This document shows, piece by piece, positions 1 through 32,000 of a DNA stretch of 32,000 nt. The notes below the pieces were generated by a model that made no database searches, had not been told where the DNA came from, and saw nothing but the letters and a program-made list of their open reading frames with translations. Each line of letters starts with the position of its first letter. The stretch's first letter is position 1. This DNA is from Candidatus Saccharimonadota bacterium (GTDB lineage: Bacteria > Patescibacteriota > Gracilibacteria > BD1-5 > UBA6164): contig OZ245922.1 of NCBI GenBank assembly GCA_965229705.1, positions 330,001 to 362,000 of the forward strand, in the 5' to 3' direction. Made by a program: the position numbers and the translations under genes.

Positions 1-738
1 TATATCACCATTCACTGCCAGTTGTCCAATCGCATGACCTGTGAGTTCAAGGTCATCTTTTAGGAATTTCCAAACAGGCTTTTCAGGGTTATCTTTGATC
101 TCATCTGTCTTTAGGAGGTAAGATACTTTCGTCTCTATATCACCAGTCAATGTGAGTTGCCCAATAGAAGAACCTGTGAGTTCAAGGTCATCTTTTAGGA
201 ATTTCCAAACAGGCTTTTCAGGGTTATCTTTGATCTCATCTGTCTTTAGGAGGTAGGATATTTTGGTCTCTATATCACCATTTACTGCCAGTTGCCCAAT
301 AGAAGAACCTGTGAGTTCAAGCTCATCTTTTAGGAATTTCCAAACAGGCTTTTCAGGGTTATCTTTGATCTCATCTGTCTTTAGGAGGTAGGATATTTTT
401 GTCTCTACATTACCAGTCAGTGCCAGTTTTCCAATCGCATAACCTGTGAGTTCAAGGTCATCTTTTAGGAATTTCCAAACAGGTTTTTCTGGACTATCCT
501 TCATCTCACCTGTCTTTAGGAGGTAGGATATTTTGGTCTCTATATCACCAGTCAATGTGAGTTGTCCAATCGCATGACCTGTGAGTTCAAGGTCATCTTT
601 TAGGAATTTCCAAACAGGCTTTTCAGGGTTATCTTTGATCTCATCTGTCTTTAGGAGGTAAGATACTTTCGTCTCTATATCACCAGTCAATGTGAGTTGC
701 CCAATAGAAGAACCTGTGAGTTCAAGGTCATCTTTTAA
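1..738. repeat. 120-bp tandem repeat, ~6 copies, coding (40 aa per unit), with a 540-bp higher-order duplication
   Basis: The unit ...ttcaaggtcatcttttaggaatttccaaacaggcttttcagggttatctttgatctcatctgtctttaggaggta... recurs every 120 bp. Positions 21-197 are identical to 561-737. Confidence 0.9.
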
Positions 739-1296
739 GAATGAAGCATAAGATAAAATAATACTTATCCTCTTCTCTCCGTCAGATTTAATAGCAATTT
801 TTAATAGATGATGCAATTTAGGAAATAGCTTCTGATATTCTCCTTCCTCATTAGCCCAAGCCAATATATGAAACCAACTTCCATAAAAAACTGCTTTAAT
901 AATATTTTTTTTAATTGTTTGATCTGTGTGTGTTGCAAGAAAGTCTTTCAAACTTGCTACATCAAATGACTCACATTTCTTTCTAATATCATTTATCAAG
1001 TCCAAGTTTTCAAACGCTGTTAATTCCCAAGCTGTTGTTGTGAGATGACCTGAAGATTGCAACACTTGGAGGAGCTCAACTTGCGTAAGTCTTTTAGCTC
1101 GCAAACAGCTCAAAGCTTGAACCAAAATAAGTTGAGGCAACTCTTCTAGGCTAGCTGACCGTACTCGTTTTTTTAGGCAATTTGCCAAATCTTTCCTCTG
1201 TCCAAGAATAATATGTAATAATTCCTTTACCTTATCTCACTGCTCAAATTTTTCAGTAGCTGAAGGACTTGCTCATTGTTGTGTAAGCTCATTCAT
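1..1296 (-). CDS. hypothetical tandem-repeat protein: unique ~185-aa N-terminal region followed by 40-aa repeats. The 3' end runs off the left edge of the window.
   Basis: The minus-strand frame is open from ATG 1296, with an in-frame TAA upstream at 1339-1341, down to position 1. There are two in-frame TGA (1273-1275, 1237-1239). It starts MNELTQQGASPSATEKFEQGDKVKELLHIILGQRKDL. From ~738 leftward it reads (ETKVSYLLKTDEIKDNPEKPVWKFLKDDLELTGxxIGQLxLTGDI)n. It is absent from the ORF track because it has no stop inside the window. Confidence 0.6.
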
Positions 1297-1389
1297 TGAA
1301 AGAAGTAAAATGTAATTGACACAAGTAATATAAATTTTTTAATGAATATTTCAAATTTTTATTGTTTTTCACTTTTTCTGGCTTTATTT

Positions 1390-2430
1390 TTACACAACTT
1401 CTCACAAACCAGGTCTTTTCGAGAGATTTTTACAAAACTTTTCTCTGAGTTCTCAGAGTGTTTCTTGCGTCATCTCAAAAGACTCAGTAGTCACTAAACG
1501 CTTTCGATAGTCTTTCACTCATGGAAAGGATTTGAGATATTGCACTAGATGCTTGCGAATCTCAAGTGATCATTTTCTCTCTCACTTTGTTTCTACCAGT
1601 TTTTGTGCGTGAAACTCCATCGCGTCAAGCATTTCTTGCAAAGTTGGCTGATAACAACCATCTACAAAGGCATCTCTTGGGTATAGTTCAGGATGTTTGT
1701 CAGCATGTTCTTTCCCGATAAAACACCAAGGATTCCCAAAGCTTCTTCGTCCTATCATAAAACCTGCTAGATTTTTGAGCTTTGTTATACCATCATCATA
1801 GTGTTCTATATCTCCATTACATATGACAGGAATATCAAGATTTTTTTGAAGTTCGTATATGTTGGTAAAATCAGCTTTTCCCGTATAGGCTTGCTTTGCG
1901 GTTCTTCCATGAATAGTGATCAATCTTGCTCAGGCTTTTTGTAGTCATTGGGCAAAGGCTATGAGGTCTTGGTTTCCGTCAAAACTCAGCCGCGTTTTTA
2001 CAGAGATTGGGAGATCAACAGACTCGTCAAGGGCTTTCACGATATCAAAAGCTGTTTGTTCGTTGATAAGCAGACTTGATCCGTGTCCGCTTCTGACAAC
2101 CTTTTTAGCAGGACATCACATATTGACGTCTATTCCTGCAACTCCATAGTTTTTGATAATCTTTGCTGACTTGGCAAAGTTTTCAGGGTTTTTTCCAAAT
2201 ATTTGAATAATCAGAGGCTGTTCTATCTCTTGATGGAGGAGGACACTCTCTGCTAAGAACTTTGAATGCACGAGTCCATCAGCACTATAAAACTCACTCA
2301 CGCAATAAATATGAGGTGCAATACGCTTCATAGACTGACGATACGCACTATCTCCATATCCATCCATTGGGGCGAGAAAGCAGAGATTTTTCTGTTTTTC
2401 GAGTTGTTGTTTCCAAAAATTTTTATGCAT
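1390..2430 (-). CDS. dus: tRNA-dihydrouridine synthase (Dus family)
   Basis: Standard-code fragments 2116-2430 and 1582-1923 lie in one minus-strand frame and join when TGA is read as Gly. Motifs: FLAPMDGYGDSAYRQ; IDVNM-G(TGA 2116-2118)-CPAKKVVRSGHGSSLL; ITIHGRTAKQ; C-terminal HLVQYLKSFPGVKDYRK. The stop is TAA 1390-1392, and the former stop at 1582-1584 is a TGA. Confidence 0.9.
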
Positions 2431-2491
2431 AAATCTTTCTTTTTTTGAGGGATTATAAGAAAAAATACATTTTTTTGAATTTTTTTACTTC

Positions 2492-3073
2492 ATGTCAACT
2501 TCTTTTATTTGCAAGAAAAAGAAAAGGTATGCTAACATAGGGATATATATTTTTTTATCACTTTTTATGAACCTTTCAGAAATCTTAATAAAGAAAACAG
2601 ATATGCGTGATGCATATAAAGAAAAATACAACCTCCCAAAACGATCGAAAATACTTATAGCGCTTTGCTGTAAAGACACAAAAATAATAAAAAAAATACA
2701 AAAAGGCCTCGCAGTTCTTCCAGCAAACTTTATCATTTTTTGAAAAGTTGAAGAGCAAATAGAGGCAAAAAATGTTGCCTATGAGTCAGACTATCTCTCG
2801 TTTGATATGATGGGAGTAGACGCAGTAATAAATGATGGTGAAGGTATGAAGATAGAGAAGAGCATGAGTGTATGAGTTGTGCCTATTCTTCCAGAGAAAA
2901 ACTATCTTGGAAAAATACTTTCTGAATTTCATGCTGGAAGGGGAGAGGGGAATGCCTTTCTCTTTGAACAGGATTCTCCTTGGTCTATGTATTATGCGCT
3001 TGTACGATATATCGAAAATCATAAGTTTCCCTATGATAATAGAAATCTCGTAAAAAATACCTTATGAGTATAA
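2492..3073 (+). CDS. hypothetical protein resembling only the C-terminal (Glycos_transf_1-like) half of a GT-B glycosyltransferase. It may be truncated, and the start is uncertain (ATG 2492, 2603, 2807 or 2810 are all in frame).
   Basis: One frame is open from 2492 to TAA 3071-3073 once TGA 2741, 2873 and 3065 are read through. The sequence LPANFIIFGKVEEQIEAKNVAYESDYLSF...GVVPILPEKNYLGKILSEFHAGRGEGNAFLFEQDSPWSMYYALVRY resembles the G..P.V....G.....V......G.LF......L..AL pattern of GT1/GT5 C-terminal domains. No N-terminal GT-B half lies upstream, because divergent dus starts at 2430. Confidence 0.35.
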
Positions 3074-3546
3074 ACACTATTTGAAAAAACTTTAATACTC
3101 CTCAAGCGGGAGCTGGGAGTATTATAAAAATCATCAATGATATTTCACAGTCTGTCGGAGAAGAAGTCCGTGTAGTCACTCATCCTGACGCAGAAGGTTA
3201 CATGATACGGTCTCGAAAAGATGGAGAGTTCATATGAGAAATATACGAGGGAACATATCAATTTTGAGACCAAAAACACTTTCATTTATGAGTAGAAGTA
3301 CCTGAGAAAATTCGTAGAAAAGGTATAGGAACAAAGCTCTATGAGCTATGGGAAGCATTTTGACGCGAAATACCAGAAGAGGAATTTACGAGAGATAGAG
3401 GACAAGTAGATTTTTTTCAAAGACTGGGTTATCAGCCAGTATCTCTGATAAGAGATTGTAATGGAGAGGAAGAAGAGATAGATGGACCAGTATCATACCA
3501 ACATATATGAAAAGGCTATTCTCTGAGAATGATAATGGAAAAATAG
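3064..3546 (+). CDS. small GNAT-family N-acetyltransferase-like protein (160 aa)
   Basis: Runs from ATG 3064 (overlapping the upstream ORF by 10 nt) to TAG 3544-3546, with several in-frame TGA. Motif-A-like HLGVEVPEKIRRKGIGTKLYELW is followed by RGQVDFFQRLGYQPV. Confidence 0.6.
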
Positions 3547-3567
3547 CTTTCACGGCTATTTTTTTTT
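3541..3567 (+). terminator. candidate intrinsic terminator after the GNAT gene
   Basis: aaatagc-tttcacg-gctattt forms a 7-bp stem followed by a run of T. Confidence 0.45.
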
Positions 3568-3593
3568 GACTTCACTTTTTTTGCTCATAGAGT
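3566..3593 (+). promoter_or_regulatory. candidate sigma70-like promoter for topA
   Basis: TTGACT (3566-3571), a 16-nt spacer, then TAGAGT (3588-3593), ~33 nt upstream of ATG 3626. Such matches are common in AT-rich DNA. Confidence 0.25.
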
Positions 3594-3625
3594 AGTGCCG
3601 TGATTTTTATTCTTGCAAAGCACTT

Positions 3626-5911
3626 ATGGCAAAAAACCTCGTAATCGTCGAGTCACCAGCAAAGGGAAAGACTATAGAAAAATACCTCTGAAAAGATTAT
3701 AAAGTTGTCGCATCTATGTGACATATACGAGACCTCCCACAAAAAACTCTCGGAATAGATATAGAAAATAACTTTGTTCCAGAATATCAAATATCAGATG
3801 ACAAGAAGAAAACTGTCTCTGAACTCAAGAAACTCGCAAAATCTTCAGAAAATATCATTCTTGCTACCGATGAAGATAGAGAATGAGAAGCAATAGCCTG
3901 GCATTTGGCACATGTATTTTGAATTGACCCAAAAACTGCGCAAAGAGTGACCTATCATGAGATTACAAAAACTGCGATACAAGAAGCATTTTCTCAACCA
4001 CAAAAAATAAATCTAGAACTCGTTAATGCTCAGCAAGCAAGGCGACTGCTTGATCGACTTGTATGATATAAAGTTTCTCCGGTACTCTGGGATAAAGTAA
4101 GAAGAGGTCTTTCAGCAGGAAGGGTACAGTCTGTTGCCGTAAAACTCATTGTAGAAAAAGAACGCGAAATACAGGCATTTACTCCTGTAGAAAGCTGGAG
4201 TATTAAAGCGCAGATGGAGTTTGGAAAAGAAAAGTTTGAGATATACTTCTCAAAACAAGATGGAAAAGTAAAAAAACTCACTAGCAAGCAAGACACGCAG
4301 AAGATTCTTGCAGCTCTCATAGATGATATCAGCTCTCTTAAAGAAACAACTACAAAAAAAGATACCAAACAGCTTTCAGAGAGTATTTCTCTCCCATTTG
4401 AACTCACTGATATTATCAAAAAAGACTCTCAAAGAACACCATGAGCACCATTTACGACCTCTACCCTTCAGCAAGAGTGAGCTCGAAAACATAGTTTGAG
4501 CGTGAAACAAACTATGATGATAGCACAAAAACTCTACGAAGGTATAGATCTAGGAGATGGAGAGAGACAATGACTCATAACATACATGAGAACTGATAGT
4601 CTTCATCTCTCAACAGAAGCGCTCACAAATTGTCAAAAAGTGATTACCGAGACATTTGGAAAACAGTATCATAAAAAACGAACATACACCACAAAATCTG
4701 CAGGTGCTCAGGAAGCTCATGAGGCTATACGACCAACTGATCTCTCACGAACACCTGAGAGTCTGAACCAGTTTCTTGACGCAAACCAACTCAAACTTTA
4801 TACCCTCATATGGAAGCGCACGCTTGCAAGTCAGATGAGCAATGCTCTCGTTGAAGTGACAACCTATAACTTTTGCCCTAGCAAGTCTCCAAAGCAAACT
4901 TGGCAGGCAAAGTGAGAGGTAATACAGTTTGATGGTTTTATGAAACTTTATATAGAGTGAAATGATGATGAAGAAGAAGATACAAGTGAAAAGTGATGAC
5001 TACTTCCAGCGATGAAAGAAGGTGATATTGCTCACTCACAACAAATAATTGCCACACAAACATTTTCTCGTCCACCAGCCCGGTATACAGAAGCCAGCTT
5101 GGTAAAGAAACTTGAGTCAGAAGGGATAGGGAGACCATCAACCTATGCTCCTACTATTTCTACGATTATTGATAGGGGGTATATAGAAAAAAAAGACCGA
5201 AAATACCTACATCCAACAGATACTGCTTTTTTGGTAACCGATTTTTTAGAAAAGTTTTTTGAACAGATGATGCAGTATAGCTTTACAAAGTCTGTAGAAG
5301 AAGAGTTCGACACTATCGCAAAATGAGAGCTGACATATCAGAATATGCTCAAGAAGTTTTGGGAAAAAACTCTCAAAGCCTCTATTGAACATGCGGGAAC
5401 TCACGCAGAAAGAGTGGTACAAAAAGTAGGGAAGAATTGTACAAAATGTGATGGAGGGGAGCTTGTATATAAATACTCTGCTTGAGGAAAATTCATCTGA
5501 TGTTCAAACTATCCTAGTTGTAAACATATAGAACAACCAGAAGAACTAAAAAATGCTCTTGATACCCTCAGAAATAAGTATGAATGAAAACCTTGTCCAG
5601 ATGGTATAGAGGGGACTATTGTTGTAAAAACTGGTCGTTTTTGACCTTTTCTTGCGAGTAGTGAATATCCAAAGGTAAAATGGATAGGAAAAATAAAAGA
5701 TGAGAAAGAAGAAATCCTTGAAGAGATACTGTGAGAAAAATGAATGCTTGTTGATGAAGAGACAGGAGAAGAAATGGTAGTCAAAAATTCTCGTAGAGGA
5801 CCATTTCTGGCAGCAAAAAGATATCCAGAAGTCAAAATAGCAAAAAATATTCCAAAAGAAGTATGGAATGAAGTAAACGAAAGGCTCAAACAGATAGAAG
5901 AAATAAAATAA
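3626..5911 (+). CDS. topA: DNA topoisomerase I (type IA) with C-terminal zinc-ribbon repeats
   Basis: ATG 3626, TAA 5909-5911. Toprim region: [22 protein letters not shown](TGA 3689)[10 protein letters not shown](TGA 3719)-HIRDLP. Active-site Tyr region: [15 protein letters not shown]. Also AHEAIRPTD, and Cys clusters [28 protein letters not shown]. Standard-code fragments 4214-4444, 4586-4915 and 5012-5326 are all in this frame. Confidence 0.95.
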
Positions 5912-6034: not shown

Positions 6035-9000
6035 ATGAAAGGTATTCAAAGAGTATGACAGTGAGGAAGTGGTTCACTCGAAATATGACAATGAATTAAT
6101 AGTTCGACTACTCCTGTATATGAAAGTACTTTGGGAGAAGTTCATGATATCCTTAGTGGTCAATCACATATCAATATTGCCAGTGAAGAAGATGTTCAAA
6201 AATTATTCGATGAGTTTTGACTGTGATCTCATACTTCTTGAGCGTTGGTATTCAGAACAAGATGTTTAGGTATTATTCATGGTTCCTATGAACATAAAAA
6301 TAATGAAGACGAAGCTCTTTCTGATTATGTAATTGGAAAACAAACACTCAGTAAGCTGAGAACCTCATTTCCTTTTAAGGTTACAGTTACAAATACTTCT
6401 GTTGTTAAACACATCAGTTTAATGGAAGTTATACTTCATCCTGTGAAAATACTCCCAAGAGTATTAAAGAACGGAAAAGTAAATGATTTTTTAAATGATG
6501 GAGACACCTGAAAAGAATTTTTACTTTGAACCATACCTGCCCAACTCACCGGGTGACAAATTAATAAGTATGTAAATAAAAAAGATATTATACAAAATGC
6601 TCTTTTTGTTCTTATGGTCCCAAACTTTTTGATACAACAAGGAGAGAAATATCAGAATAATTTTTTTCAGATTCTATTCAAAGAGATAAAAAGTTCAGAA
6701 AAAAAGAGACTATTGTCAAAAGACTCATTTTTTTATTCGTATTTGCAAGAACATTTTTCGAGTATTTCGTACCTGAAAAAGCATTTTTTTATACACAGAG
6801 AAGAGAGTCAGAAAAATCTATGAAAAAATGTGAAACATAGTACTACTCAAGTAGATTATCCGCAGAGAAATCTTTCTGGAGAGAATACTTCTCAGGAGAA
6901 ACGGCAGATAGATCCAGGATTTCAAGAAGTAGTCGCAAGACAAGGAGAAGATTTTGAAAGGTTTATGTGACATATAACAGATATACTCAGAATTTTCAAG
7001 TGTAGTAAGAGACTAAGCTTTATATGTTTGAATATATACGATTTGCAAAACACAAAAAAACTAAATACTCCACTAGAAGAAATGAATATTTGAGAAATTG
7101 TTGATCTATATATTGCCTGACAGATTGATCTTGAAACGGCGCAAAGAGCAAAAGGTTTTGGTATGGATGAAGATCAATCAGAGAATCTCATACTTTATAC
7201 AGAAAAACTGAGTTTAGATCAAGAAACAATCGAGAAAATTAATCAAGATTATGGTGATGATGAAGACCCTTTTCGTCAGTGAGTTGTACTTTCACGAATA
7301 GATCTCTGAGTTTCTCTCTGAGAAGTGAAAGCAGAGAGGATGATATATTACCTTCTTCCACTGATACTCTATCCAACTTTTATTGTCAAACAACACCCAG
7401 AATACCAAAAAAGAGTGATAGAAATATTTCTCATAAATATCCAAAGATTGACAGAGTACTCTCTCAGTAGAGAAGATTTGCAGTCAGTTTTTATGTATTT
7501 AGAAAAGTATTTTCCCACATTCAGAGAACTTATGGATTATCAAGAAGAACTTTTGGATATAGCATGACTCCTTCAAGCCTTTGAATATCCAAGAGGACTA
7601 TGATACATTGCAGAGCTAAAGTTAGAGTTTCAAAGAGTATCATGAAAGCCAGTAACTAGTAAGGAAGATCTAGAGGCATATTGACTCGAAGATGCAAGTT
7701 TAATGCTCCTCTCATGAAAGTATGCTATAGATTCGATAAAAGAAGATATTTTTCCTAATTCTGAGAAAAAACACCAGCCATATGAGATTACTCATTTGTT
7801 AGGTCTTGCCAAAAATACAGAATTACAAAAACAATTTTTGAATATTTGTGATCAACAAACTAATAATATTTCTTCATTTGAAAACATCGATAGTATATGA
7901 ATACTTGAAAAAAGTATTCTTATGATGGCAATATTTCTCATAAGATCAAAAGAGAGTCTTATTTCTTCCGTAAAAGTGAGATATAAATATCATTTACTTT
8001 CATTACTCATTTATCCACAGTATATTCAAAAAACATCAGCAAAACAACAAAGAAGATTTTTCCAACTCCTGTTTCAACTCTTTAGTGAGAAGCAACTTCT
8101 TGGTGATGAGAGGATATATAACTACCTCCAAAAGTATTTTTGAAATATTGAGAGTCTCCAAACAAAAATAGCTTCTTATAATAAAAAGAAAGAATGAAAC
8201 GGCAAGGGAGTAAGACTGAGAAAAGCAGGAACGATGAAAAAAGGATCAAGAACAGACAGCCAAAAACTTACGGTTCCAATGTTTCCAATAGAAACATCAT
8301 CAATACCAGAAAAAGAGACTCCAAGAGAAAAGTCTCTTGAAGAGATACTTGAAGATGTACCGAAAGTTACGCGAGAGAATACTCGGGTAAGCAAGTTAGG
8401 GAAAAAGTATATTATTGATTCTGATATCGCCGTTCCAGAAGGATTTACGGTATTTATATGTTTGTGGGCAAAAAAGAAATGAACAACTTTGAAAGAACCT
8501 CAACAATTTCATACTTACACGCTGTGAAAAGCTATAGATATTCCTAGAGGATATCATCTTACAGTATGAGTTTTCCCTGAAAACACAGAGTTCAATCGTT
8601 CACTTTATGATCAACACAGTGAAAGTTTTCCTCATATTTACACTTCAACTGTACCAAAAAGTAGCAAAAAACAATATCATTGATGAGGCTTTTGAAGAAA
8701 GCAAGACTCATCAAAAAAACAAAGTGTAAAACCAGAAACACCTACAAACCATAGCACTACAAGCGAAGCAGAAAAAGATGTAGATCTCCTTCAATATGCA
8801 GTGACTGAGCATATCAATCGCGAAAATATGCGTATAAAGGGTGATGTGCTCAGCTTTGATATTCCTGAGTGAACAGGAGTTTTAGATACATCAGGTTATT
8901 CTGGGGAGGCAAAAACGAGAACTATCAAGATAGAGATGACGGGAGAAAGTAGTTATAAATTGCTATGTTTCTTATGAATTTCACAATTGCAAGTTACTGA

Positions 9001-10015
9001 TAATGACCTAGACACTGCTTTAAAACAAATAGTAACAGAAATCCAAAGAGAGAGACAAGAAGCAGAAAAAAAGAAGAAAATACAAGAAATGGCAAGGGAG
9101 AGAAAGAGGATACATGGACAACTCTCAGAACCCATAAAAAAGGCTACGGTATTTCTCTGACAGTGTCAGCCATCAGAAATAAAAAAGGTTACAGGAAACA
9201 GGACATTTTATGTATGGCAGATGCCGAGAAAGCAAGAGTTTTATGATAAAATCTCTGATATGTATAAAGGTATTTGATATGATATACGCTTTATACAGTG
9301 AGAAAAGCGGATATTAGACGCCGTGAGTATTAACGAGTATACTTTTGATATTCACTCGTCTGGGAAGGTAAAAAAAATTACTTGTGATAAAAAACTGGAT
9401 TTTTATCAAGACCAGATTTTGAGAATTATCTTAGAGTGAGTTTTGGCAGTGTTGGTAGTAAAATACTATCAGGATGATAATTTAGCCACAGAGAAGGCTG
9501 AGGTACTCTCACGAGTAAACGCATATATTGCTGATAGAGCTTCAAAAAGAGAAGAGTTAGTTACAAGACTCAAAGAAGGGAGAGCTTCTTTTGTTGATGG
9601 ATGGGAATACCATGAAAGTGAGAGTGTTGGCAGCAATCACCCCGAAATCACATATCGTGATTTACTCTGAACACGAGGACATATTAAGTTTTTTTGAAAT
9701 AAAATATTTAAAGAAGAGACTCTATTGCGCAACTATGAGGAACTTTTTGAAGAAATGGAAGAACATAAAGGAGCATTGACAGAGTATGTATTTATGAGGC
9801 TTACAAGTACCGAAAGAATACAGAATCAGAGTCAGAAAATACAGTATATATTATATTGATTTCAAGATGAGGGACTCTCTTTCGAAAGTGATGATATTAA
9901 GGGAAAACATGAGTTTTGTCTCAAAGTTCTCTCTGCGATGAGGAAAGCAAAAATAGGAGTCGAGCTTATTCGCCCTACATCATTTTTATATGAAGAGATT
10001 GAAGAGTTTTTATAA
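6035..10015 (+). CDS. large hypothetical protein (1326 aa) with no domain I can recognise and three related internal modules
   Basis: ATG 6035, TAA 10013-10015. I walked every codon and found 40 in-frame TGA and no TAA/TAG. Standard-code fragments 6245-6511, 6614-6823, 7325-7567, 7922-8143, 8234-8482 and 9443-9670 all lie in this frame. Confidence 0.7.
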
Positions 10016-10033: not shown

Positions 10034-10783
10034 ATGCAGGAACATCTACGCGCTCACCTCCAAACTCGTAAACAGCCGCAAGTTCTACAAAGGTTTTTTT
10101 CAAAAATACAGTGAAAAGTGTCAAATATCCTCAAAACATGATACACCAAGATTCTTGAGGGATTGGACAGTACTTCTATTTCTCCAAATAGACTGGTAAC
10201 ACTGAGAACAGTAACGGCAATTAGCGTAGCAGGTATACTCACTCTGAATGATAATTTGTGAATGCTTGCTGAGTATGGACTTCTTACTGTGTGAGCACTA
10301 GCGTTGATCTCAGATAAGATAGACGGTGATCTTGCAAGATACACGCATCAAACATCAGTAGAAGGAGAGGTATATGACGCTCTTGCAGATAAGATAACTG
10401 TATACAGTATTCTTGCTCTTATATGGACTCAAGCTTCAGCAGAATCTCATTATCTTATACTTCTTTTACTGACATGAATGTCTTTTTCTCTCGACGCTTT
10501 CTCACAGTCTCTCAGGGGCAAGTATAATATTCAAGCACTCAGATCATTTTGGATGAAGCCCTTGAGTACTGAACAAAGGCAAAAAAATACTCAAAAACAG
10601 CAAACACAAAATGCTGCTAATATCTATGGTAAGCTCAAAACTTGTGCTGTGATGTCTGCTGTGTGAGTAGGAGTGCAGGATGTACTTCCACTCTCAGAAG
10701 AGAGTAAAATAACTATAGCAAACTGCTTGCTTACAAGTGGGATAATACTTTCCTGAGCAAGTCTTTATAATAAGTTTCGTTAA
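10034..10783 (+). CDS. CDP-alcohol phosphatidyltransferase family protein
   Basis: ATG 10034, TAA 10781-10783. Signature D-G-x2-A-R-x8-G-x3-D-x3-D: SDKIDGDLARYTHQTSVEGEVYDALADKI (from 10310). N-terminal ISPNRLVTLRT and several hydrophobic segments. In-frame TGA at 10112, 10139, 10157, 10259, 10292 and others. Confidence 0.8.
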
Positions 10784-10947: not shown

Positions 10948-11691
10948 CTATCTCCCTCTCTTTCAAAGAAATATGTATAATAGTATCCCTCATATTATCA
11001 TAGGAATACTCAGTAAGCTTCACTGCGTTAAAAATCAAAGATAATATCATATGTGACTATCAGGCTGCCTGATCCATATCTCTACTATCACTCGAAACAC
11101 TCAATAATATATCAAAAAGAGAGCTGATATCTTTCAGGAAAAACTCTTTTTATAAATAAAGTTAAGGAGTACAAAAATCACGCATCACTCTAAAAAAGCT
11201 TCTACTAAAGGAGAAGGGAAGTATGAACCATTCGCTGTCTGCACAGCGAGAAATCAATCATAGGAAAATCATAACAGTTCCTTATTGAGATAATTTCCTA
11301 TTCTTCATAAAAACAAACCTACTGGAACTATCATAGCAAGTGTATCAAAAAGTTGAAAAACATCTTTTTTATACCTTTTTGCAAATATAGAGACCGCGAG
11401 TATCACTCATAACAGTCATCCATGAAATGCCATTCATCATTGCCATATATATAAAACTACAAGAGGATTTTCTATAAGCTCTCTAGGATAATAAAAGAGA
11501 AAATTTCCCAACCTCCCACCAATAATCACTCCTATAAATACAAAGTAAAAAAGCATCTCTCTTTCTCGATCATTATAGGGAAGGAATTTTTTTATTGCCC
11601 ATATACCATAAAAAAAAGCAACAGCATACATCAGTCAATAATAGCTTGGAGCAAGGGTTACTCAGAAAAAAGTGAGTTCAAATATTTTCAT
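10948..11691 (-). CDS. lgt: prolipoprotein diacylglyceryl transferase
   Basis: ATG 11691, TAG 10948-10950 (744 nt). Motifs: MKIFELTFFGVTLAPSYYGLMYAVAFFYG; YIWQ-G-G(TGA TGA at 11434-11439)-MAFHG-G; GRIGNYLNKELLG; PSPLVEAFLEG. Standard-code fragment 11437-11631 is the middle of this gene. Confidence 0.9.
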
Positions 11692-14585: not shown

Positions 14586-14715
14586 ATAAACAAGGAACAT
14601 TATTTTCCTAAAATAAGAATATGTGTTTCTGTGTATTTTTTAACTCCATAGTTTTATGTTATGAACAGCAACTTTTACAAGAACAGACATAGAGATGTTA
14701 TGAACAGCAGAGTAT

Positions 14716-21325: not shown

Positions 21326-22027
21326 ATGAAAAAAATAGTTGTTCTGTTTCTTCTGATCTTTGCTCTCACATCTTGCGCAAAATCTCAAGATATTATCAAC
21401 CCAGAGGCTGAGTATCGTTATTTTTTCTGAGCAACATGTCCTCACTGTCAGGAGCTCAATAGACTCTTAGAGTCAGCCGATGTTCTCTCTCAGATATCAG
21501 TAGAAAAAAGAGAGGTATATCACAACACCGAAAATCGCCAGATATTCGCTGATCTTGTTGCACAGCTCAAGCCGCGAAGCGATGGAGTGCCTTTTGTTTA
21601 TGATACGGTGAGTTGAGAGGTAGCTGTATGAGTAGCTCCAGCGTTCAAGCTCCTCACTTCAAGGATAGAGTCTTCTCCAGAAGAAACATCTATGCAAGAA
21701 GAGAAATATCCAAAATGAGAGACAATTCTGAACCCAGATGCAGATTATATCCTATTTTATGGAGATGATGACGAAGACTCTCTGAGTATAAAAGATACTC
21801 TGCAAGAGATGAAGATATCTCTAGAAATTCGAGAAGTGTATTCACACTCTCAAAATGGAGCATTTTTTATGACCTTTGCCAAGAGAAGTGGCATTGCTAC
21901 TGAGAGTCTTGATGTTCCTTTTCTCTATCATAAGTGAAGTGCAAAGTATGCTCAGTGATCAGAAGAGATACAAAAACTCGTAGAAAACCCTCAGCTATAT
22001 TCTATTCCTGATGAAAAAGAGCTTTAA
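21326..22027 (+). CDS. lipoprotein with two tandem thioredoxin/glutaredoxin-like modules (first CPHC, second degenerate)
   Basis: ATG 21326, TAA 22025-22027, every codon walked. Signal peptide plus lipobox: MKKIVVLFLLIFALTSC. First module: YRYFF-G(TGA 21428)-ATCPHCQEL. The second module (NPDADYILFYGDDDEDSLS...) parallels the first (NPEAEYRYFFGATCPHCQE...). Confidence 0.65.
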
Positions 22028-22078: not shown

Positions 22079-22903
22079 ATGAGAAAGTCTCGTTTTGCAT
22101 CCAAGAAAAAACCCGGTCATCAACAAAAGATGCAAGTAGCACGAAAGAAAAGACCAGCTCCATACCAAATGCGAGACAAATACTTTGAAATGGCAAAGCA
22201 AGATGGATATAGAGCCCGTAGCGCTTATAAGCTTAAGGAAATACAAGAAAATTTTGAGCTTATAAAACCTGGCATGAATATTTGTGATATTTGAGCTGCG
22301 CCGGGGAGTTTTATACAGTATATGAAACGCATTATATCTGACACAGGAGTTATCGTAGGAATTGATCTGAAACCTATAGCAAAATACTCTCAAAAAAATA
22401 TTATCACTCTTGAACATGATATTTTCGAATGTGATTCACTGAGAGTGAAAATCATAGAACTTTTAGAAGATGTGGCATTGAAGGAATCTTTGAGAAACAA
22501 AAAAACCTTGACTGAGAGACTAGTCTCAAGCTCTTGAAATAGTAAACTCGAGACCAGTCTCGAGAAAATAAAATGACTTTCTCAGGTGCTCAATAAGTCA
22601 TCTTCTCCCGCGAAAGAAAGTGTATACTTTGATCTGATAACAAGTGATATTGCCCCAAACACCACAGGGCGAAAAGATATAGATCAGTATGCAAGTGTAG
22701 AACTCAATATAGAAGTTTTAAAATTTGCAGATATATTTCTCAAAACATGATGAAATCTGTTACTCAAAGTGTTTAAGGGAGAGGATTTTTGAGACCTTAC
22801 ACAAGAAATACATAAGAGATACCAACGTTTTACAGAGTTTAAGCCTTATGCTTGTCGGGATAGAAGTTTTGAAGAATATCTTATTTGCTTTGGAAAAAAA
22901 TAA
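22079..22903 (+). CDS. rlmE: 23S rRNA 2'-O-ribose methyltransferase RlmE/FtsJ carrying a ~50-aa internal insertion
   Basis: ATG 22079, TAA 22901-22903. Motifs: [30 protein letters not shown](TGA 22292)-AAPGSF; ITSDIAPNTTGRKDIDQ; G-G-NLLLKVFKGEDF; KPYACRDRSFEEYLI. Fragments 22079-22294 and 22322-22537 are in this frame. Confidence 0.85.
22511..22585 (-). repeat. palindromic repeat element copy embedded in frame in rlmE
   Basis: The sequence is ctgagagactagtctcaagctcttgaaatagtaaactcgagaccagtctcgagaaaataaaatgactttctcag. The reverse complement of 22547-22585 (ctgagaaagtcattttattttctcgagactggtctcgag) matches 31805-31843 (ctgagaaaggcatttttatttttcgagaccggtctcgag). The ends are inverted (CTGAGA...TCTCAG), and it holds two 12-nt palindromes, GAGACTAGTCTC and GAGACCAGTCTC. 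Confidence 0.75.
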
Positions 22904-23523
22904 TGACCTTTCTTGATATTTTGTTGTTCCTTTTGGGATTAAGTGTAGGAGTATGGAGTTACTTTTCATGAAGAGATAGCCTCTATAAGCTATTTATATG
23001 ATTGGTTATAGGCTTTTTGAGTTTTTTGGTTGTAAGCTATCAGATACATATATCAGAGTTGACTCATGGTATTGAGCTGAGAGCCTATGACAGATTTCTG
23101 TTAGAACATAAAGCAGGGATCCTCAATATTCTTTTTTTTTGTGTTCCTACATTGGGAATATTTTTTATGCTTCATCCTCGTATCATCATCGAAACCCGGC
23201 CCAAGAGTATTTCTCATATCCTCTTAGGTATGATACTTCCATTTTTTATGATGTGAATGATATATCATACTCAGAGTAGCTTTATATTAGGAGAACATTT
23301 TCTTTGAAACGCTGTGCGAGAGAGTTTTCTCTACGGACTTTTTGAATATATTTCAGGACTCATGTTTTATCTTATTGCGGTTTTTATTTGTTATAAGTTT
23401 CTTTTCTTGGCTCTTTTAGAGTTTGCAAAATGGATCAAAAATGATTGTATGGCAATACTTTTTGCAAGCTGGGGGAGGAAGAAAAAGAGGAGAATAGATG
23501 AAGAAGAAGACTTATGAGAATAA
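22903..23523 (+). CDS. integral membrane protein, possibly CvpA family (206 aa)
   Basis: ATG 22903 overlaps the rlmE stop (TAATG). Stop TAA 23521-23523. It has 4-5 hydrophobic segments, a CvpA-like N-terminus MTFLDILLFLLGLSVGVWSYFSG, and a basic/acidic tail. Fragments 23002-23256 and 23314-23517 are in this frame. Confidence 0.5.
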
Positions 23524-24045: not shown

Positions 24046-24070
24046 ATCACTCGATAGAGCTTTCTCACAA

Positions 24071-24226: not shown

Positions 24227-25315
24227 ATGCGATACACACAAAAATATCGTCTTTTAACCTTTTACAAGTTTGTAGATGTGGCAGACCCTGAGGCAGAATG
24301 CCTAGAACACCTTACATTTACCAAAGACATTTGAATGAAAGGTAGAGTCTACATATGAAAAGAAGGCATTTCAAGTACTGTTACCGGAAACCAGTGACAA
24401 ATACAGGCCTATAAACTCTACCTTGATAATCATCCCCTTTGGAAAAATATCCAAGATATAGATATCAAATCCAGTCCCACAAACACCCATCAGTTTTCTC
24501 GAATGCAAGTAAAAGTTCGTGATGAAATCGTTGTTTTATGAAAAAAATATTCACAAAAAGAAATACAGCAGGCAGGTAATAGAATGAGTATAGAAGAATT
24601 TAAAAAGATACTTGATAGCGAAAATAGGCAGGACTATGTGATCTTAGATATGAGAAACAATCATGAGTATCAACTCTGACATTTCAAAAACGCTATCAGA
24701 GCAAACACTCTGAACTTTCGTCAACTCGAGAAAGAAATAGAAACTTATAAAAAAACCTTTGGTAATAAAAAAATTATTTCTTACTGCACCGGAGGTATTC
24801 GATGTGAAAAATCTACTGTTATGCTCCAGAAAGCTGGACTCAAAAACACCTACCAACTTGACGGAGGAGTCGTAAAATATATCAACACTTACAATGACGG
24901 CAATTGGCTTGGAAATCTCTATGTATTTGATGACAGAGTCAGTCAGCAGGTCTGAGATGAACAGACCCATACCACAATAGGAGAGTGCCTATACTCACAG
25001 AAAAAAACAGACAATTGTGAAAATTGCCGACTTTCTCGCTGCAATGCCCGTATTATTGCCCAGAGAAAAGAGTATAAAAAACACGCATGATTTTGTAGTG
25101 AAGAGTGCGCTCAAGAAGCGCTTTCAACCTTACTGGTAAAAACAGATTTTTCTCTTGATCCTGTCGACTATAAAAAGAAAAGATGAGTGATAAAGCAGCA
25201 TCCAGAACTCCGAGAACGTATCGAAAATGAGCTTCGTACACACCTCAAAAAACAACTAGATGGAGTCGTGTTTCCTCATAAAGTATCACAAAAAGAGGAT
25301 TATATATTGGACTAA
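24227..25315 (+). CDS. trhO: rhodanese-domain tRNA uridine(34) hydroxylase TrhO (YceA/UPF0176 family)
   Basis: ATG 24227, TAA 25313-25315, every codon walked (8 in-frame TGA). Motifs: LTFYKFVDV...; MRNNHEYQL-G-HFKNAI; active-site loop YCTGGIRCEKST; C-terminal Cys cluster CLYSQKKTDNCENCRLSRCN...FCSEEC. Confidence 0.85.
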
Positions 25316-25380: not shown

Positions 25381-25824
25381 ATGGAAACGAGTTTGATTCT
25401 CCTAAAACCAGATTGTGTAGAGAGAGGTCTTATAGGTCAGGTTATTAGCCGACTAGAGCAAAAATGACTCAAGATATCATGACTCAAGATGATGCAGTTA
25501 GACGATGCACTTATCAGCGAACACTATGATTTTCTTGCGGATAAACCTTTTTTTCCAAAGATACGAGAATACATGTCTCGAACACCTATTGTAGCTCTTG
25601 CCGTGAGTGGAACAAGTGCTATTGCAACTGTGAGAAACCTTACAGGCGCAACAAATCCCCAAGAAGCACTTCCAGGATCTATTAGGGGAGATTTTGGCCT
25701 GACGATTGATGGAAATATTATTCACGCAAGTGATAGTGAAGAAACAGCTCAAAAAGAGCTTGAAAGATTTTTTGCAGGAAAAGATATTTTTGACTACCCA
25801 CGAGGAGTAGACAAGATACTCTAA
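25381..25824 (+). CDS. ndk: nucleoside diphosphate kinase
   Basis: ATG 25381, TAA 25822-25824. Sequence: [40 protein letters not shown]...EHY...GATNP..A.PGSIRGDFG...NIIHASDS. Confidence 0.9.
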
Positions 25825-25847
25825 ATACTTCTCTTCAATACAAAAAT

Positions 25848-27341
25848 ATGTCTCCACTCTATGATACCATGCTTGCTGAGTATCTCAAAAACCCTTGAGG
25901 ACACTGACTGAGTCTAGACACTCTTGCAGAGAAAAAGTACGACTATGAGATGATATCTTATAGCGATATCACTGAGAAAAAAAATCTTACTTTCCACGAA
26001 GTCTCACTCGAAAAAGCAGCCGCTTATTCATGAGAAGATGTATACATCACATACAAGCTCTACAAAGATCAGCAAGATGAGACCTATAGAGCAAAGGCAA
26101 TATCTCAGCAAGAAAATACGAATCATAAAAGAGATATTCTCATAGATATAGAATTGCCACTTATGCAGGTACTCTCTGACATGGAGATGACGGGTATAAA
26201 AATAGATAAAAAGATACTAGAGTGAATCGGAGAAAGGCTCTCATGAGCGATAGAAGAACTCCAAGAAGAGATATATACTCTTGCGGGAGAAGTATTTAAC
26301 ATACACTCTCCAAAACAGGTATGAGAAATACTCTTTGAGAAACTTGCTCTTCCAAGTTCTAAAAAAACAAAAACTGGTTATAGTGTGAATGCTGAAGTTC
26401 TCGAAGGGCTCAAGAAAGAGTATCCTATTGCTGAGAAAATAGTAACATATCGTCACTACTGCAAGCTTCGTTCTACCTATATAGAAGGTCTTTTGAAACT
26501 TGCAACAGATACAGACAGGATTCACACTAGTTACAATCAAACTGTTACTTCTACCGGAAGACTCTCAAGTAATAAACCAAATCTCCAAAATATACCTATT
26601 GGAAATGATATTGCTGGAGAGATTCGTTCCGGCTTTATTCCAGACGAAGACAGTATTCTTGCAGCGCTTGATTATTCTCAAGTAGAAGTGAGACTCTTAG
26701 CTATTATGAGCCGAGATGATAATCTCCTGAAAGCTTTTCAAGAAGAGAGAGATATACATCAGGTAACGGCTGAATATATTTTTTGAAGTAGTCATATAAG
26801 CCCAAAGCAGAGACAGTTTGCCAAGGCAGTAAACTTTTGAGTGATATACGGTATAAGTCCTTTTGGGCTCTCAAATATGATAGATATTAGCCAAAAAGAG
26901 GCAAAGACTTATATCGAGAGTTTTTATGAAAATTACCCAAAGGTACGGAGCTTTTATGACGATATTATACTTAACTGTAAGAGGCAGGGATATGTTGAGA
27001 CTCTTTTTTGAAGAAGGAGGTATATCAAGTCTATCAATGACCAAAACAAGATGATGCAAAAGTGAGCAGAGAGAGAGGCTATCAATATGCCGATTCAGGG
27101 AAGCAGTGCAGATATCATTAAACTAGCAATGATACAAATATCCAAAATGCTTCGTGAGGAGAGTTTTGAGAGTAAGATGCTTTTGCAGGTACACGATGAG
27201 TTAGTGTTTAATATTAAAAAGTCAGAGCAACATAGCATTCTCCCAAAGATACAACATATCATGGAACATGTTCTTCCCAGCTCTCCTATACCACTCAAAG
27301 TTGATATTGCTATAGGAAATAATTGGAAAGAGTGTAAATAA
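25848..27341 (+). CDS. polA: DNA polymerase I, polymerase (family A) domain only (497 aa)
   Basis: ATG 25848, only 23 nt after the ndk stop. Stop TAA 27339-27341. It begins at the Exo III region (YDTMLAEYLKNP...AAAYSGEDVYITYKLY). Motif A: LAALDYSQVEVRLLA. Motif B: RQFAKAVNF-G-VIYG. Motif C: LLQVHDELVF. No 5'-nuclease or Exo I/II sequence precedes it. Confidence 0.9.
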
Positions 27342-27358
27342 TCATAACTTTTATATAT

Positions 27359-27586: not shown

Positions 27587-27620
27587 AGAGCTTGTATATG
27601 CTCCATAAGTAAATCCTTGA

Positions 27621-27866: not shown

Positions 27867-27867
27867 T

Positions 27868-27974
27868 GCTTGAGCAGGTTTTGAGAAAGTCTTTTTTTTC
27901 TCATTTTGAAAGGAGGGATTTCTCACTAAAGCTAGAGTGGATAAGAGAATTTTTGTTTTTCAGAGCTTGCTCAA
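27868..27974 (+). repeat. dispersed intergenic repeat, long copy (more diverged)
   Basis: ttgagaaagtcttttttttctcattttgaaaggagggatttctcactaaagctagagtggataagagaatttttgtttttcagagcttgc aligns with the copies at 10791 and 21177 (rc). Short inverted ends: gcttgagca (27868) and tgctcaa (27968-27974). Confidence 0.7.
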
Positions 27975-28042
27975 AAATCTTTCGTGTTTTTCAGCTTTCT
28001 TTATACAATAAGTTTCGCGCTTATTTGTATTACATACCTACT

Positions 28043-29470
28043 ATGAAAAAACAGATTTTTATCACTGTCTTGTGTCTGACAGTATTATTGTTTCCATATA
28101 TAACAGAGGCATGAACCTGGAAAGACTCTCTCATAGATATCTCTGAAACAATAGAGAGAGAAACGCCCAAGAGCTATGAGTACATTAGTCTCAACTTTCA
28201 GCGTGTACCAACAAACTCTCAAATAGAACTCGCTCTCAAAAAACTCGTATATCATGATGTGATAGAAAACGCGAGTGTTGCCCTCCCATTTTCTCAGGAA
28301 ATTTCTAAAGAGTTTGAAAACGCGATAAAACGCAAGATAACAACTCTCAATCAAGAAAATAAAACGCTTCATATAGAGCTGTGAAATACTCAATCTCAAA
28401 CACAACTCTCAGAAAAAGAAAGGGTCTTTTATGATGTGCTTAACACGCTCCAGGACTCACATGTATATAAAGATGAGTTTAGCCAAGATGATCTTCTCGA
28501 CGCCGCAATAACTGGTCTCACTGAGTGAACAGATGACAGCTATACAACTTATTTTCCTCCCGCAAGAAGTACCACTCTCTACCAATCACTTGATGGGGAG
28601 TATGAGTGAGTCTGAGCCTATGTAGAAATGCCCGAGCCTGGAGTCATCATCGTTGTGTCTCCGATAGTATGATGACCTGCAGAAGAAGTATGAATAAAAG
28701 GTGGGGATAGAGTCACTCATGTAGATGGGCAAGAAATCACAGAAGATATTTCATTGCAGGAGGCCGTCAGCTGGATCAAGTGACCGAGTGGAACACGCGT
28801 TGAACTGACCGTACTGAGAGGCGAGGAAGAACTGGTATTTTCTGTAGTCAGGCAAAAAATAGTCCTCAAAGATGTAGAGCATGAGAAACTCTCGTCAGAT
28901 ACATACTATATTCAGATCAAAAACTTTGGAGATAGTGTTGATACCGAGTTTCAAGAAGCTCTTTCTGTTATCTCTGACGATAGATCAGTAGATAGAATTA
29001 TTTTTGACCTCAGAAATAACCCAGGAGGATATCTACACAAGGCTTCCTCTGTACTGAGTTACTTTTTGGACGAATGATCTCCTGCTGCCGTGATACGAGC
29101 AGGAGATGAAGAAACTCGCTATATATCCGCCTGATATGATCTTATTGATTTTGAGGACTATGAGCTCATATTTCTGCAAAATAGCTGAAGTGCCTCTGCC
29201 TCTGAGATCATGATAGGAACAGTAAAAGACTATTTTCCAGATGCAATAGTGATAGGGGAACAAAGTTTTTGAAAATGATCAGTACAAACTCTCAGACCAT
29301 ACAGAGATGGATCAACACTCAAATATACCAGTGCAAAATGGTATACAGGAAAAAGTAATACAGGAATAGACGGTGTGTGAATCATTCCGGATATTGAGCT
29401 CCTTTTTGATAGAGAAAGATGGGAAACATACAAAAAAGATAATCAACTCGAAAGAGCGCTCGAATACTAG
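28043..29470 (+). CDS. ctpA: carboxy-terminal processing (tail-specific) peptidase, S41 family, with a PDZ domain
   Basis: ATG 28043 (MKKQIFITVLCLTVLLFPYITEA, signal-like), TAG 29468-29470, every codon walked. PDZ region: VSPIV-G-G-PAEEV-G-IKGGDRVTHVDGQ...IK-G-PSGTRVELTVLR. Also DLRNNPGGY, NS-G-SASASEI and EQSF-G(29270)-K-G(29276)-SVQT. The standard-code ORF 27866-28114 is only an upstream read-through of the same frame across the repeat. Confidence 0.85.
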
Positions 29471-29475
29471 TCACT

Positions 29476-31491
29476 ATGAGAACCTATTTCATCCAAACAT
29501 TTTGATGCCAAATGAATCAGGCTGACAGTGAGAAAATACATATGGTATTTTTGCAGTCGGGATTTTGTCGAGCTTGAAATATTCAGAGTGCGGATATCGT
29601 TATTTTTAATACTTGCAGTGTCCGTCAAAAATGAGAAGATAGGGTATTTGGTATGATGAGAGATCTCGCTCGCAGTTCTCACAAACCTCTTTTTGCTATC
29701 ACTGGTTGTATGGTACGCAAAACAGGTCTCGCAAAAAGATATCTTCCTACAGCTCAAACAAAGACAAAGAAGAAAAATACTACAAAACACATACAACTCC
29801 TAGACCATGAACAATGAATATATAACAGTGAAGATACACTCTTTGTGCGTAGCGAGTATATTGATTGCGTTTTTCGTATAGAAGAAACACGCTACATACC
29901 CCATATACTTTCACATATTTACGGTGAAAAAATCGGGCAAGAAGATAAATATGATGACTACCTCAAACAAGTCCAACAACGAGAAAACCCCTTTTCTGCA
30001 TCAGTGATTATCCAAACAGGTTGCGATAACTACTGTACATTTTGTATTGTTCCATACACGCGGTGAGGGGAAATATCTCGTCCAGAAGATGATATAATAA
30101 ATGAGTGTCAAGATGCCGTCTCCAATGGAGCAAAAGAGATCACGCTTCTCGGGCAAAATGTCAATTCCTATGGGAAACAAAAAAATAGCAAACTTTGGAA
30201 TAGTGAAAAATCGAGATGGAATACTGCTCAAAAAACTCTTAAAATAGGAGTCGATCTTGATGATACTCTCTTTGTTGTACTCAGTGAAGAAGTCATACAA
30301 AGCTATAATGCCAAGTATCATAAGATTCTCGAGCTCGATGATGTGCGAACATTTAACTGCAATGGTATACCAGAGCTTATGCAGGAATATCACAACTATG
30401 AACAGAGACACCGATGAGATATGTCTCTCCATGAGAATGGAAAAAAGGTATTGCAAAAATTATACGCTGCAGGACACAAAATATATGTGATCACCTCAAG
30501 ACCAGCAAAAGAGAGAAAGACTACAGAAGCACTTTTGGAAAAATATTTTTGAAAATGATTTTTTTCTCAGATATGTTTTGTCAGTGAGCTTGGGCATGAT
30601 AACAAGTATGAGATTGCCAATACTCTCCAGCTCGATGTGGTTATCGATGATGGACCACATCATATCCGTGCCTATCAAAAAAACTTTTCAGGAAAAATAT
30701 GTATATTTACTCAACCATGGAACAAGACTATCTCAGAAGATGGGCAAAAAACCTATAGAGTCAACTGCTGGAATGAGTTTGCTGAAAGGATAGAGAGTTT
30801 TCAGTTTTATTCGCCTTTTCGATCTCTCTTAGAAAAAATAGATACTCTACAAGGTCTTGATCGTATACGATTTACTTCCAGCAATCCACATGACATGACG
30901 AGAGATATTTTGGATGCTCATAGTGAGCTCTCAAAAACCTGCAATTATCTCCACTTTGCTCTCCAGTCATGAAACAATAAAATGCTCAAAAAAATGAATA
31001 GGCGTCATAGTTATGAAGATTTTCGTGATATGGTAACGTATCTGCGAAAAAAAGATCCTCTCTTTTCTATTTCTACAGATATTATTGTATGATTTAGTGG
31101 AGAAACTGATGAAATGTTTGAGGATACTGTTCGCGCGTTTCGAGAGTGCATGTTTGACTTCTGTTATACAGCGAGGTACTCTGTGAGACCCAATACCCTT
31201 GCAGCAAAAGTTATGCCAGATAATGTTCCTGAGAGTGTCAAAGCTGAGAGGTGGCATATACTCAATGATCTTTTGTTAGAAAATATTTCTCAGAGAAACG
31301 AGCTCATGCTTGGAAGAGTAGAGAAAGTACTGATATCATGAAAAAAAGATGCCGTATTTTTTGGGAGAACACGTAACTTTAAAGAAGTTTTTTTCGAAGC
31401 TCCAGAGAGCTGTAATATCTGAGATTTGGTAGACATAAAAATAACCGATCGTGATAGATATGTACTCAAGGGAAAGTATACAAATACATAA
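29476..31491 (+). CDS. miaB: tRNA methylthiotransferase MiaB with a nested HAD-superfamily (NT5C-like) domain (671 aa)
   Basis: ATG 29476, TAA 31489-31491, every codon walked. Motifs: [37 protein letters not shown]; radical-SAM [16 protein letters not shown](30064)-GE; [10 protein letters not shown]; [insert 30238-30804]; [14 protein letters not shown]; LHFALQS-G-NN; IV-G(31090)-FSGET; TRAM-like C-terminus. Fragments 29845-30066, 30637-30972 and 31114-31341 share the frame. Confidence 0.9.
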
Positions 31492-31497
31492 AATGCT

Positions 31498-31797
31498 ATG
31501 CAAATACCAAAGGAAAAATTTCAAGATCTTCTCCGTTCATGAGAATATATACTCCTGGATGTTCGTACGTTTCATGAGCAGGAAACCCATGGAGTGATAT
31601 CACAAGAACAAATACATATAGATATTATGGAAACTGATGCTTCGGAAAAAATCAAAAATCTTGACCATCAAAAAAAATACCTCATCTATTGCTGGCATGG
31701 CAGGAGAAGTGCGACAACAAGAGAATATATGCAGGCTCATGGTTTTAAGAATGTGTATGATCTCCAGTGAGGAATAGATGCTTGGAAAGAGCTTTAA
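31498..31797 (+). CDS. single-domain rhodanese-like sulfurtransferase (99 aa)
   Basis: ATG 31498 (6 nt after the miaB stop), TAA 31795-31797. Motifs: YILLDVRTFHEQETHG...; active-site loop YCWHGRRS; AHGFKNVYDLQ-G-GIDAW. Confidence 0.75.
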
Positions 31798-31804
31798 AAA
31801 AATT

Positions 31805-31843
31805 CTGAGAAAGGCATTTTTATTTTTCGAGACCGGTCTCGAG
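31805..31843 (+). repeat. palindromic repeat element, short intergenic copy
   Basis: ctgagaaaggcatttttatttttcgagaccggtctcgag contains the perfect 16-nt palindrome tcgagaccggtctcga and shares head and palindrome with 10791-10886 and 22547-22585 (rc). Confidence 0.8.
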
Positions 31844-31934
31844 TTCATTATTTTAAGTGTAAGAAACTCTAGGGTTGTTTACACTTTTGGATAATCTGTA
31901 CAGCAGAATATTTTAGAAGTTAAACATAAAGGAA

Positions 31935-32000
31935 ATGAATATACATAAACGAACAAGGCTCACTGAAATGCAAAGAAAAGATATATGGGAGAAATATAAA
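31935..32000 (+). CDS. possible IS481-family transposase, N-terminal 22 codons only (runs off the right edge)
   Basis: ATG 31935: MNIHKRTRLTEMQRKDIWEKYK. The M-N-x-H-K-x-x-R-L-T opening resembles the N-terminal HTH region of IS481-type transposases. The fragment is too short to be sure. Confidence 0.3.
   Translation, partial: MNIHKRTRLTEMQRKDIWEKYK

Follow-up and report, generated by a model that had tools for sequence, protein, structure and literature searches.

The locus analyzed here, a 32,000-nucleotide (nt) stretch of contig OZ245922.1 (positions 330,001 to 362,000 of the forward strand; hereafter the window), raises the question of what the codon TGA means in its genes. The original prediction was that TGA is read throughout as glycine (translation table 25) and not as tryptophan (table 4). 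We found that UGA is an ordinary glycine sense codon in these genes and that UAA and UAG alone terminate them. As had been predicted, glycine rather than tryptophan was indicated by three independent comparisons, which drew on homologues with solved structures, on the topA codons of relatives, and on a strain of the same species.

Reading frames with TGA as a sense codon

Under the standard code (table 11), open reading frames (ORFs) of at least 100 amino acids (aa) in the window summed to 5,356 aa, and the longest reached 412 aa. With TGA as sense, the total rose to 21,100 aa and the longest ORF to 1,339 aa. Freeing TAG alone or TAA alone gave totals of 9,012 and 10,304 aa, respectively; since either change adds little, the fragmentation seen under the standard code is repaired only by reading TGA as sense. 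At a GC content of 35.6%, the window then holds about 23 genes with a coding density of 89% and 250 in-frame TGA codons. Twenty long ORFs tile it, with 2 to 40 in-frame TGAs apiece, and three extra small genes were detected, among them one for a single-domain rhodanese (Table 1). A scan of the window against Rfam at gathering thresholds gave no match, and neither rRNA nor ribosomal-protein genes were found in it.

Full-length Pfam matches across TGAs, covering each profile from start to end, were obtained for Dus; Toprim, Topoisom_bac and the zinc ribbon; CDP-alcohol phosphatidyltransferase; LGT; the M23 peptidase; the alpha, motor and gamma domains of FtsK; FtsJ; UPF0176_N, Rhodanese and Rhodanese_C (TrhO); NDK; DNA_pol_A; Peptidase_S41 with PDZ; and UPF0004, Radical_SAM and TRAM (MiaB). 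The ORF totals and the profile matches thus bear out the prediction that no housekeeping gene is intact under the standard code and that the frames are restored once TGA is sense. The counts of 40 and 38 in-frame TGAs given for two large ORFans proved exact, as did every coordinate given for a TGA in a conserved motif of topA, lgt, dus, rlmE, ftsK, ctpA and miaB, and the TGA predicted in the PolA motif NF-G-VIYG was located (Table 1).

Across 9,529 codons, in-frame TAA and TAG were absent, compared to 250 TGAs, and the genes ended in TAA (15) or TAG (4). That all coding sequences end in one of these two codons had also been predicted; the counts agree, although this is partly a consequence of how an ORF is defined. 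The endings are still meaningful, since Pfam profiles were matched up to their C-terminal ends.

Glycine at TGA positions

The same codons include 384 GGN and 59 TGG. Read as glycine, TGA is the most used codon for this residue (250 versus 208 for GGA) and supplies 39% of all glycine, and the window proteins then contain 6.65% glycine and 0.6% tryptophan. Read as tryptophan, it would give 3.2% tryptophan and 4.0% glycine. Since tryptophan at 3.2% would be implausible, the amino acid composition fits glycine.

We aligned window proteins, with X placed at each TGA, to standard-code homologues with solved structures and read the residues opposite X by eye. Glycine stood opposite 12 of 16 aligned TGAs in Lgt (versus E. 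coli Lgt; the others were I, Q, A and Y), 7 of 12 in TopA (versus 6ozw; D, P, A, T and K), 8 of 13 in FtsK (versus P. aeruginosa FtsK; T, R, T, D and T), and 7 of 11 in CtpA (versus B. subtilis CtpB; T, K, S and D). The shorter comparisons gave 5 of 8 in MiaB (versus B. uniformis MiaB; D, A and K), 4 of 6 in Dus (versus T. maritima Dus; I and A), 2 of 7 in PolA (versus Bst PolA; Q, E, Q, H and F), and 2 of 4 in RlmE (versus human FTSJ3; C and Q). With all alignments pooled, TGA was opposite glycine at 47 of 77 positions (61%) and opposite tryptophan at none. E. coli TopA, which was also aligned, was concordant with 6ozw at conserved sites. Among the glycine matches are the GG and HGG of the E. 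coli Lgt motif W-D-G-G-M-S-F-H-G-G, where a TGA TGA pair lies opposite GG, and the Walker A glycine of FtsK. By comparison, TGG codons of the window were opposite tryptophan in TopA (AIAWHL, PVLWDK, ESWSI and LIWKR).

We also scanned the species representatives of GTDB r232 for TopA, which yielded 80 loci, and aligned the topA genes of 73 of them codon by codon. In-frame TGA was present in topA at all 46 Gracilibacteria-type loci (at least 59% identity), with 2 to 47 TGAs each, and at none of 27 more distant Patescibacteria (44 to 49% identity). The TGA-bearing loci are mostly labelled Candidatus Gracilibacteria, while some automatic labels read Peribacteria or Patescibacteria group. In the 27 standard-code topA genes, the 19 columns that hold TGA in the window contained GGN in 49.7% of cases and TGG in 0.2%; the 27 columns that hold GGN in the window contained GGN in 54.7%, essentially the same level. 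In the relatives that use table 25, both sets of columns mix TGA with GGN, but the columns of window TGG codons were 96.5% TGG and never TGA or GGN. When the TGA columns of topA were scored by a Codetta-style log-likelihood ratio, glycine received +21.0 nats, asparagine, as the next best residue, −14.7, and tryptophan −30.1.

TGA usage in topA varied widely among these 46 relatives. The share of glycine codons that are TGA ranged from 4% to 93% and was lower where the GC content of the locus was higher (Spearman rho −0.61). The two closest relatives of the window have just 5 and 2 TGAs in topA.

The third comparison was with a same-species strain represented by contig ctg43927 of ENA assembly ERZ25074195, which is 95.6 to 97.9% identical to the window at the nucleotide level. 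Three GGA/TGA exchanges separate the two, one apiece in dus, topA and the CDP-alcohol phosphatidyltransferase gene. Synonymous differences outnumbered non-synonymous ones in dus (27 to 5), topA (36 to 8) and the M23 peptidase gene (33 to 3). In ORFan 2, 36 of the 38 TGA codons are shared with this independent assembly. ORFan 1 showed 114 non-synonymous and 44 synonymous codon differences, which suggests that its evolution is near-neutral or diversifying.

Source lineage, decoding and alternative readings

Absconditabacteria or Gracilibacteria had been predicted as the source of the DNA. This was correct and can be narrowed to Gracilibacteria/BD1-5 by the named homologues and by the codons CGA and CGG. 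Among the best 120 TopA and the best 120 MiaB clusters, every named one was Candidatus Gracilibacteria (59 to 75% identity), and two complete Gracilibacteria genomes, CP042461 and CP017714, contributed topA loci. The gene order dus, hypothetical gene, topA, lgt, M23 gene, ftsK recurs in part at Gracilibacteria loci. The nearest GTDB r232 representative has 74% TopA identity, with none closer. A reassignment of CGA and CGG to tryptophan has been predicted by Codetta for Absconditabacteria and some Gracilibacteria (PMC8629427). The window genes have 63 CGA and 11 CGG codons, and these occupy invariant arginine positions, for example in TopA GHI-R-DLP and PPA-R-Y, Dus KT-R-L, and MiaB PYT-R-G, and therefore we rejected this additional reassignment. 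Taken together, these data indicate that the window almost certainly comes from the chromosome of an uncultured Gracilibacteria/BD1-5 bacterium (GTDB Patescibacteria class JAEDAM01) that uses table 25.

For the decoding mechanism, we infer the scheme that earlier work has set out for this lineage. A tRNA with anticodon UCA and the glycine identity set (G1-C72, C2-G71, G3-C70, U73) would read UGA after being charged with glycine by glycyl-tRNA synthetase. Loss of release factor 2 (prfB) would leave no competitor at UGA, and release factor 1 would terminate at UAA and UAG. With mutation biased toward AT, GGA and UGA could then swap freely as synonyms. A tRNA(UCA) with this identity set has been reported for Gracilibacteria genomes, in which it is expected (PMC8629427; gTranslate preprint 10.64898/2026.05.24.727570). 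According to the summary in PMC6851277, which cites PMC4032931, UGA as glycine in Gracilibacteria has been validated by proteomics, and prfB was absent from all BD1-5 genomes then available. BD1-5 genomes retain prfA.

Several observations weigh against glycine as the meaning of TGA, or fail to show its decoder. About 39% of the aligned TGAs were opposite residues other than glycine in the distant homologues; because this rate equals that of the GGN codons of the window, we attribute it to ordinary divergence. Two TGAs of ORFan 1 are TGG in the sister strain. In the protein with 99-nt repeats, one repeat codon, which follows H-L, takes either form: 9 units have TGA there (HL-X-QSL or HL-X-EAL), and 3 have TGG (HLWGGL). 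Being single-base changes in fast-evolving genes, these swaps do not outweigh the evidence from conserved genes. Finally, ARAGORN detected no tRNA gene in the window, at any of 53 topA loci of Gracilibacteria, or at the strain and miaB loci; the tRNAs that it found among the topA loci were solely in non-Gracilibacteria loci.

A separate scan with a structural pattern for Gly-type tRNA(UCA) gave 2 viral and 45 metagenome matches. Most were discounted, as many resemble eukaryotic tRNAs or have odd loops and lie on non-recoded contigs. Convincing matches were found on contigs unrelated to the window, at L108 (1549-1622), L124 (11751-11823, equal to L081 480-552) and L082 (7794-7867). These three tRNAs have the glycine acceptor set, GCG...CGC with U73, and they lie on TGA-recoded contigs of 25 to 29% GC, two of them IMG/VR viral contigs. 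The L108 tRNA adjoins a sigma-70 gene with 7 TGAs, two of which are in the region 4 motif TLEEI-X-EFY-X-TTRERIRQIE. The L124 tRNA is near genes for a glycosyltransferase and a methyltransferase with the S-adenosylmethionine (SAM) motif LDV-X-CNT-X, and the L082 tRNA is near a phage terminase gene with 10 in-frame TGAs. Read by eye, the TGAs of the L108 and L124 genes appear to fall in Gly-rich motif positions. These matches show that such machinery for recoded UGA occurs in nature, on contigs not tied to the window genome, and suggest that some phages both use recoded UGA and carry its tRNA.

The TGA/TGG alternation raises the possibility that UGA and UGG are not cleanly separated, as U34 of a tRNA-Gly(UCA) could wobble onto UGG, a risk that has been pointed out before (PMC8629427). 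The alternation in the 99-nt repeats and in ORFan 1 fits such partial ambiguity, but ordinary substitution in diverging genes explains the same data, and we regard incomplete separation as very unlikely. If present, it may be tolerated or even used in the fast-evolving, TGA-dense proteins specific to this lineage, the densest of which have TGA at up to 4.6% of codons.

UGA could also mean glycine in DNA of another origin, namely the genome of one of the Absconditabacteria (SR1) or of a phage that infects them. Table 25 is used by Absconditabacteria as well (PMC8629427), and Gly-type tRNA(UCA) is carried by some of the TGA-recoded phage contigs described above. Set against this are the named homologues, the conserved arginines at CGA and CGG, and cellular housekeeping genes on a contig of 1,006,762 bp in a gene order common to Gracilibacteria loci. 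We therefore consider such an origin very unlikely.

Tryptophan, the meaning of TGA in table 4 as used by Mycoplasmatales and several insect endosymbionts, restores identical reading frames and would account for the TGA/TGG alternation of the repeat protein and of ORFan 1. It is also how the window genome has been translated in a public collection of 5.8 billion proteins, where its TopA (P0001) has tryptophan at all 19 TGAs and ORFan 2 of the sister strain has tryptophan at 36 of 38 aligned TGA sites. We take this to mean that these genes were called with table 4 and not table 25. The structure alignments, the near-absence of TGG from the TGA columns of standard-code topA, the distinct TGG columns of the relatives, the score of −30 nats and the implausible tryptophan content all argue against this assignment, which we judge highly improbable. 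Least credible of all is a standard-code organism in which the TGAs are genuine stops in pseudogenes or errors of sequencing or assembly. Such an organism would account for the fragmented table 11 ORFs and for nothing further; it conflicts with the absence of in-frame TAA and TAG, with the recurrence of TGAs in the strain assembly and at homologous glycine positions in 46 other genomes, and with the excess of synonymous changes in conserved genes such as topA and the M23 gene. Selenocysteine was rejected solely on the grounds that there are 250 sites, in proteins of every kind, and that these align to glycine and not to cysteine or selenocysteine.

Genes of the window and known systems

Table 1. 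Features of the window with TGA read as glycine.
Feature	Position	Strand	Evidence
Whole window, table 25 decoding (TGA = Gly)	1..32000	.	ORFs, codon counts
Tandem-repeat protein, 135-nt units, 3' end beyond the window, 2 TGA near the N-terminus	1..1296	-	
dus, tRNA dihydrouridine synthase, 8 TGA; NM-G-CP codon 2116-2118	1390..2430	-	Pfam, structure alignment
Hypothetical protein, 3 TGA in ORF, conserved in 39 Gracilibacteria topA loci	2567..3073	+	
GNAT acetyltransferase, weak match, 6 TGA	3064..3546	+	Pfam
topA, 19 TGA; SM-G-HIRDLP codon 3719-3721	3626..5911	+	Pfam, alignments
ORFan 1, 1,326 aa, 40 TGA, no Pfam match, fast divergence between strains	6035..10015	+	
CDP-alcohol phosphatidyltransferase, 8 TGA	10034..10783	+	Pfam
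lgt, 17 TGA; TGA TGA at 11434-11439	10948..11691	-	Pfam, structure alignment
Peptidase M23 family protein, 14 TGA	11880..14225	+	Pfam
Tandem-repeat protein, 14 TGA; 99-nt units, 10.3 copies at 15064-16085	14656..16338	+	
ORFan 2, 825 aa, 38 TGA, zero TGG	16400..18877	+	
ftsK, 19 TGA; Walker A VA-G-QTASGKS codon 20205-20207	18942..21164	+	Pfam, structure alignment
Hypothetical secreted or lipoprotein-like protein, 6 TGA	21326..22027	+	
rlmE/ftsJ-type methyltransferase, 6 TGA; D-I-G-AAPG codon 22292-22294	22079..22903	+	Pfam, structure alignment
Hypothetical membrane protein, 6 TGA in ORF	22903..23523	+	
trhO (UPF0176/rhodanese), 8 TGA	24227..25315	+	Pfam
ndk, 2 TGA	25381..25824	+	Pfam
Short polA, 497 aa; NF-G-VIYG codon 26838-26840	25848..27341	+	Pfam, structure alignment
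ctpA, S41 peptidase with PDZ; F-G-K-G-SVQ codons 29270 and 29276	28043..29470	+	Pfam, structure alignment
miaB with inserted HAD/NT5C domain, 12 TGA in ORF; V-G-FSGET codon 31090-31092	29476..31491	+	
Single-domain rhodanese, 99 aa, 2 TGA, absent from the gene list of the original prediction	31498..31797	+	

Several genes listed in Table 1 have features of their own. As predicted, polA forms an uninterrupted frame with TGA as sense, but its product is not a full-length PolA: it consists of the polymerase domain and a stub of the 3'-5' exonuclease domain, without the 5' nuclease, and its gene starts right after ndk. Since the PolA of a relative (locus L130, 6424-7887) is similarly short, with 487 aa and DNA_pol_A only, the short form looks like a trait of the lineage and not a truncation artefact. 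MiaB carries an insertion of ∼220 residues (∼30184-30856) inside the radical-SAM core, a HAD/NT5C (5'-nucleotidase-like) domain that is absent from the solved B. uniformis MiaB (7mjz), which has ∼20 residues at that place. About half of the 120 best homologue clusters share this insertion in long MiaB proteins (650 to 697 aa), and the MiaB proteins of other Gracilibacteria have 463 to 532 aa; one of the long proteins was named 'MiaB/5'(3')-deoxyribonucleotidase' by JGI (the Joint Genome Institute). RlmE/FtsJ has 274 aa; the 181 positions of the FtsJ profile align to it in two blocks, on either side of an insertion of ∼65 residues (aa 117-183). The 135-nt repeat protein has at least 5.5 copies of its unit, which run past the window edge.

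Homologues of ORFan 2 were found only in the same-species strain among the 5.8 billion proteins of the collection, and both large ORFans appear, from sequence comparison, to be restricted to this species. The strain also has two copies of Transposase_mut that are missing from the window, located at 16614-18877 and 8215-9363 of two strain loci. One, with a 344-aa ORF, is flanked by the CDP-alcohol phosphatidyltransferase gene and lgt, and the other is at the place of the 99-nt repeat gene of the window.

UGA as glycine in Gracilibacteria and Absconditabacteria has been known since 2013, is listed by NCBI as a table of its own and is textbook knowledge for the lineage; as a phenomenon, the recoding in the window adds nothing new. 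What matters in practice is clean annotation. Under table 11, all genes of the window fall to pieces. Table 4 puts tryptophan at the TGA positions, ∼2.6% of residues, and does so in catalytic glycine motifs such as the FtsK Walker A, the SAM-binding loop of RlmE and the GG pair of Lgt. The original prediction had warned that a standard-code annotation of this DNA would be wrong, and the copies of TopA and of the strain ORFan in the public collection, with tryptophan at TGA, show that table 4 has in fact been applied. Such entries will bias homology searches, predicted structures and compositional statistics for the Gracilibacteria lineage.

The closest known system is table 25 itself, the code of Candidate Division SR1 and Gracilibacteria, for whose first description PMC8629427 cites Campbell et al. 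2013 and Rinke et al. 2013. As in that code, UGA is sense on glycine and the stops are UAA and UAG only; as in that lineage, GC content is low, the genome is small (contig of ∼1.0 Mb), and BD1-5 relatives have in-frame TGA. No difference in kind was found, with the qualification that the window species is without a close match among the GTDB r232 species representatives scanned. Table 4, used by Mycoplasmatales, Hodgkinia, Zinderia, Nasuia and others, is similar in that UGA has been captured in low-GC, reduced genomes and, by analogy, in the route through loss of release factor 2. It differs in that UGA means tryptophan there and glycine here, where the tRNA would be expected to derive from tRNA-Gly and not from tRNA-Trp. 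The extended code of Absconditabacteria (PMC8629427) shares UGA as glycine with the window but is predicted to read CGA and CGG as tryptophan, whereas both encode arginine here.

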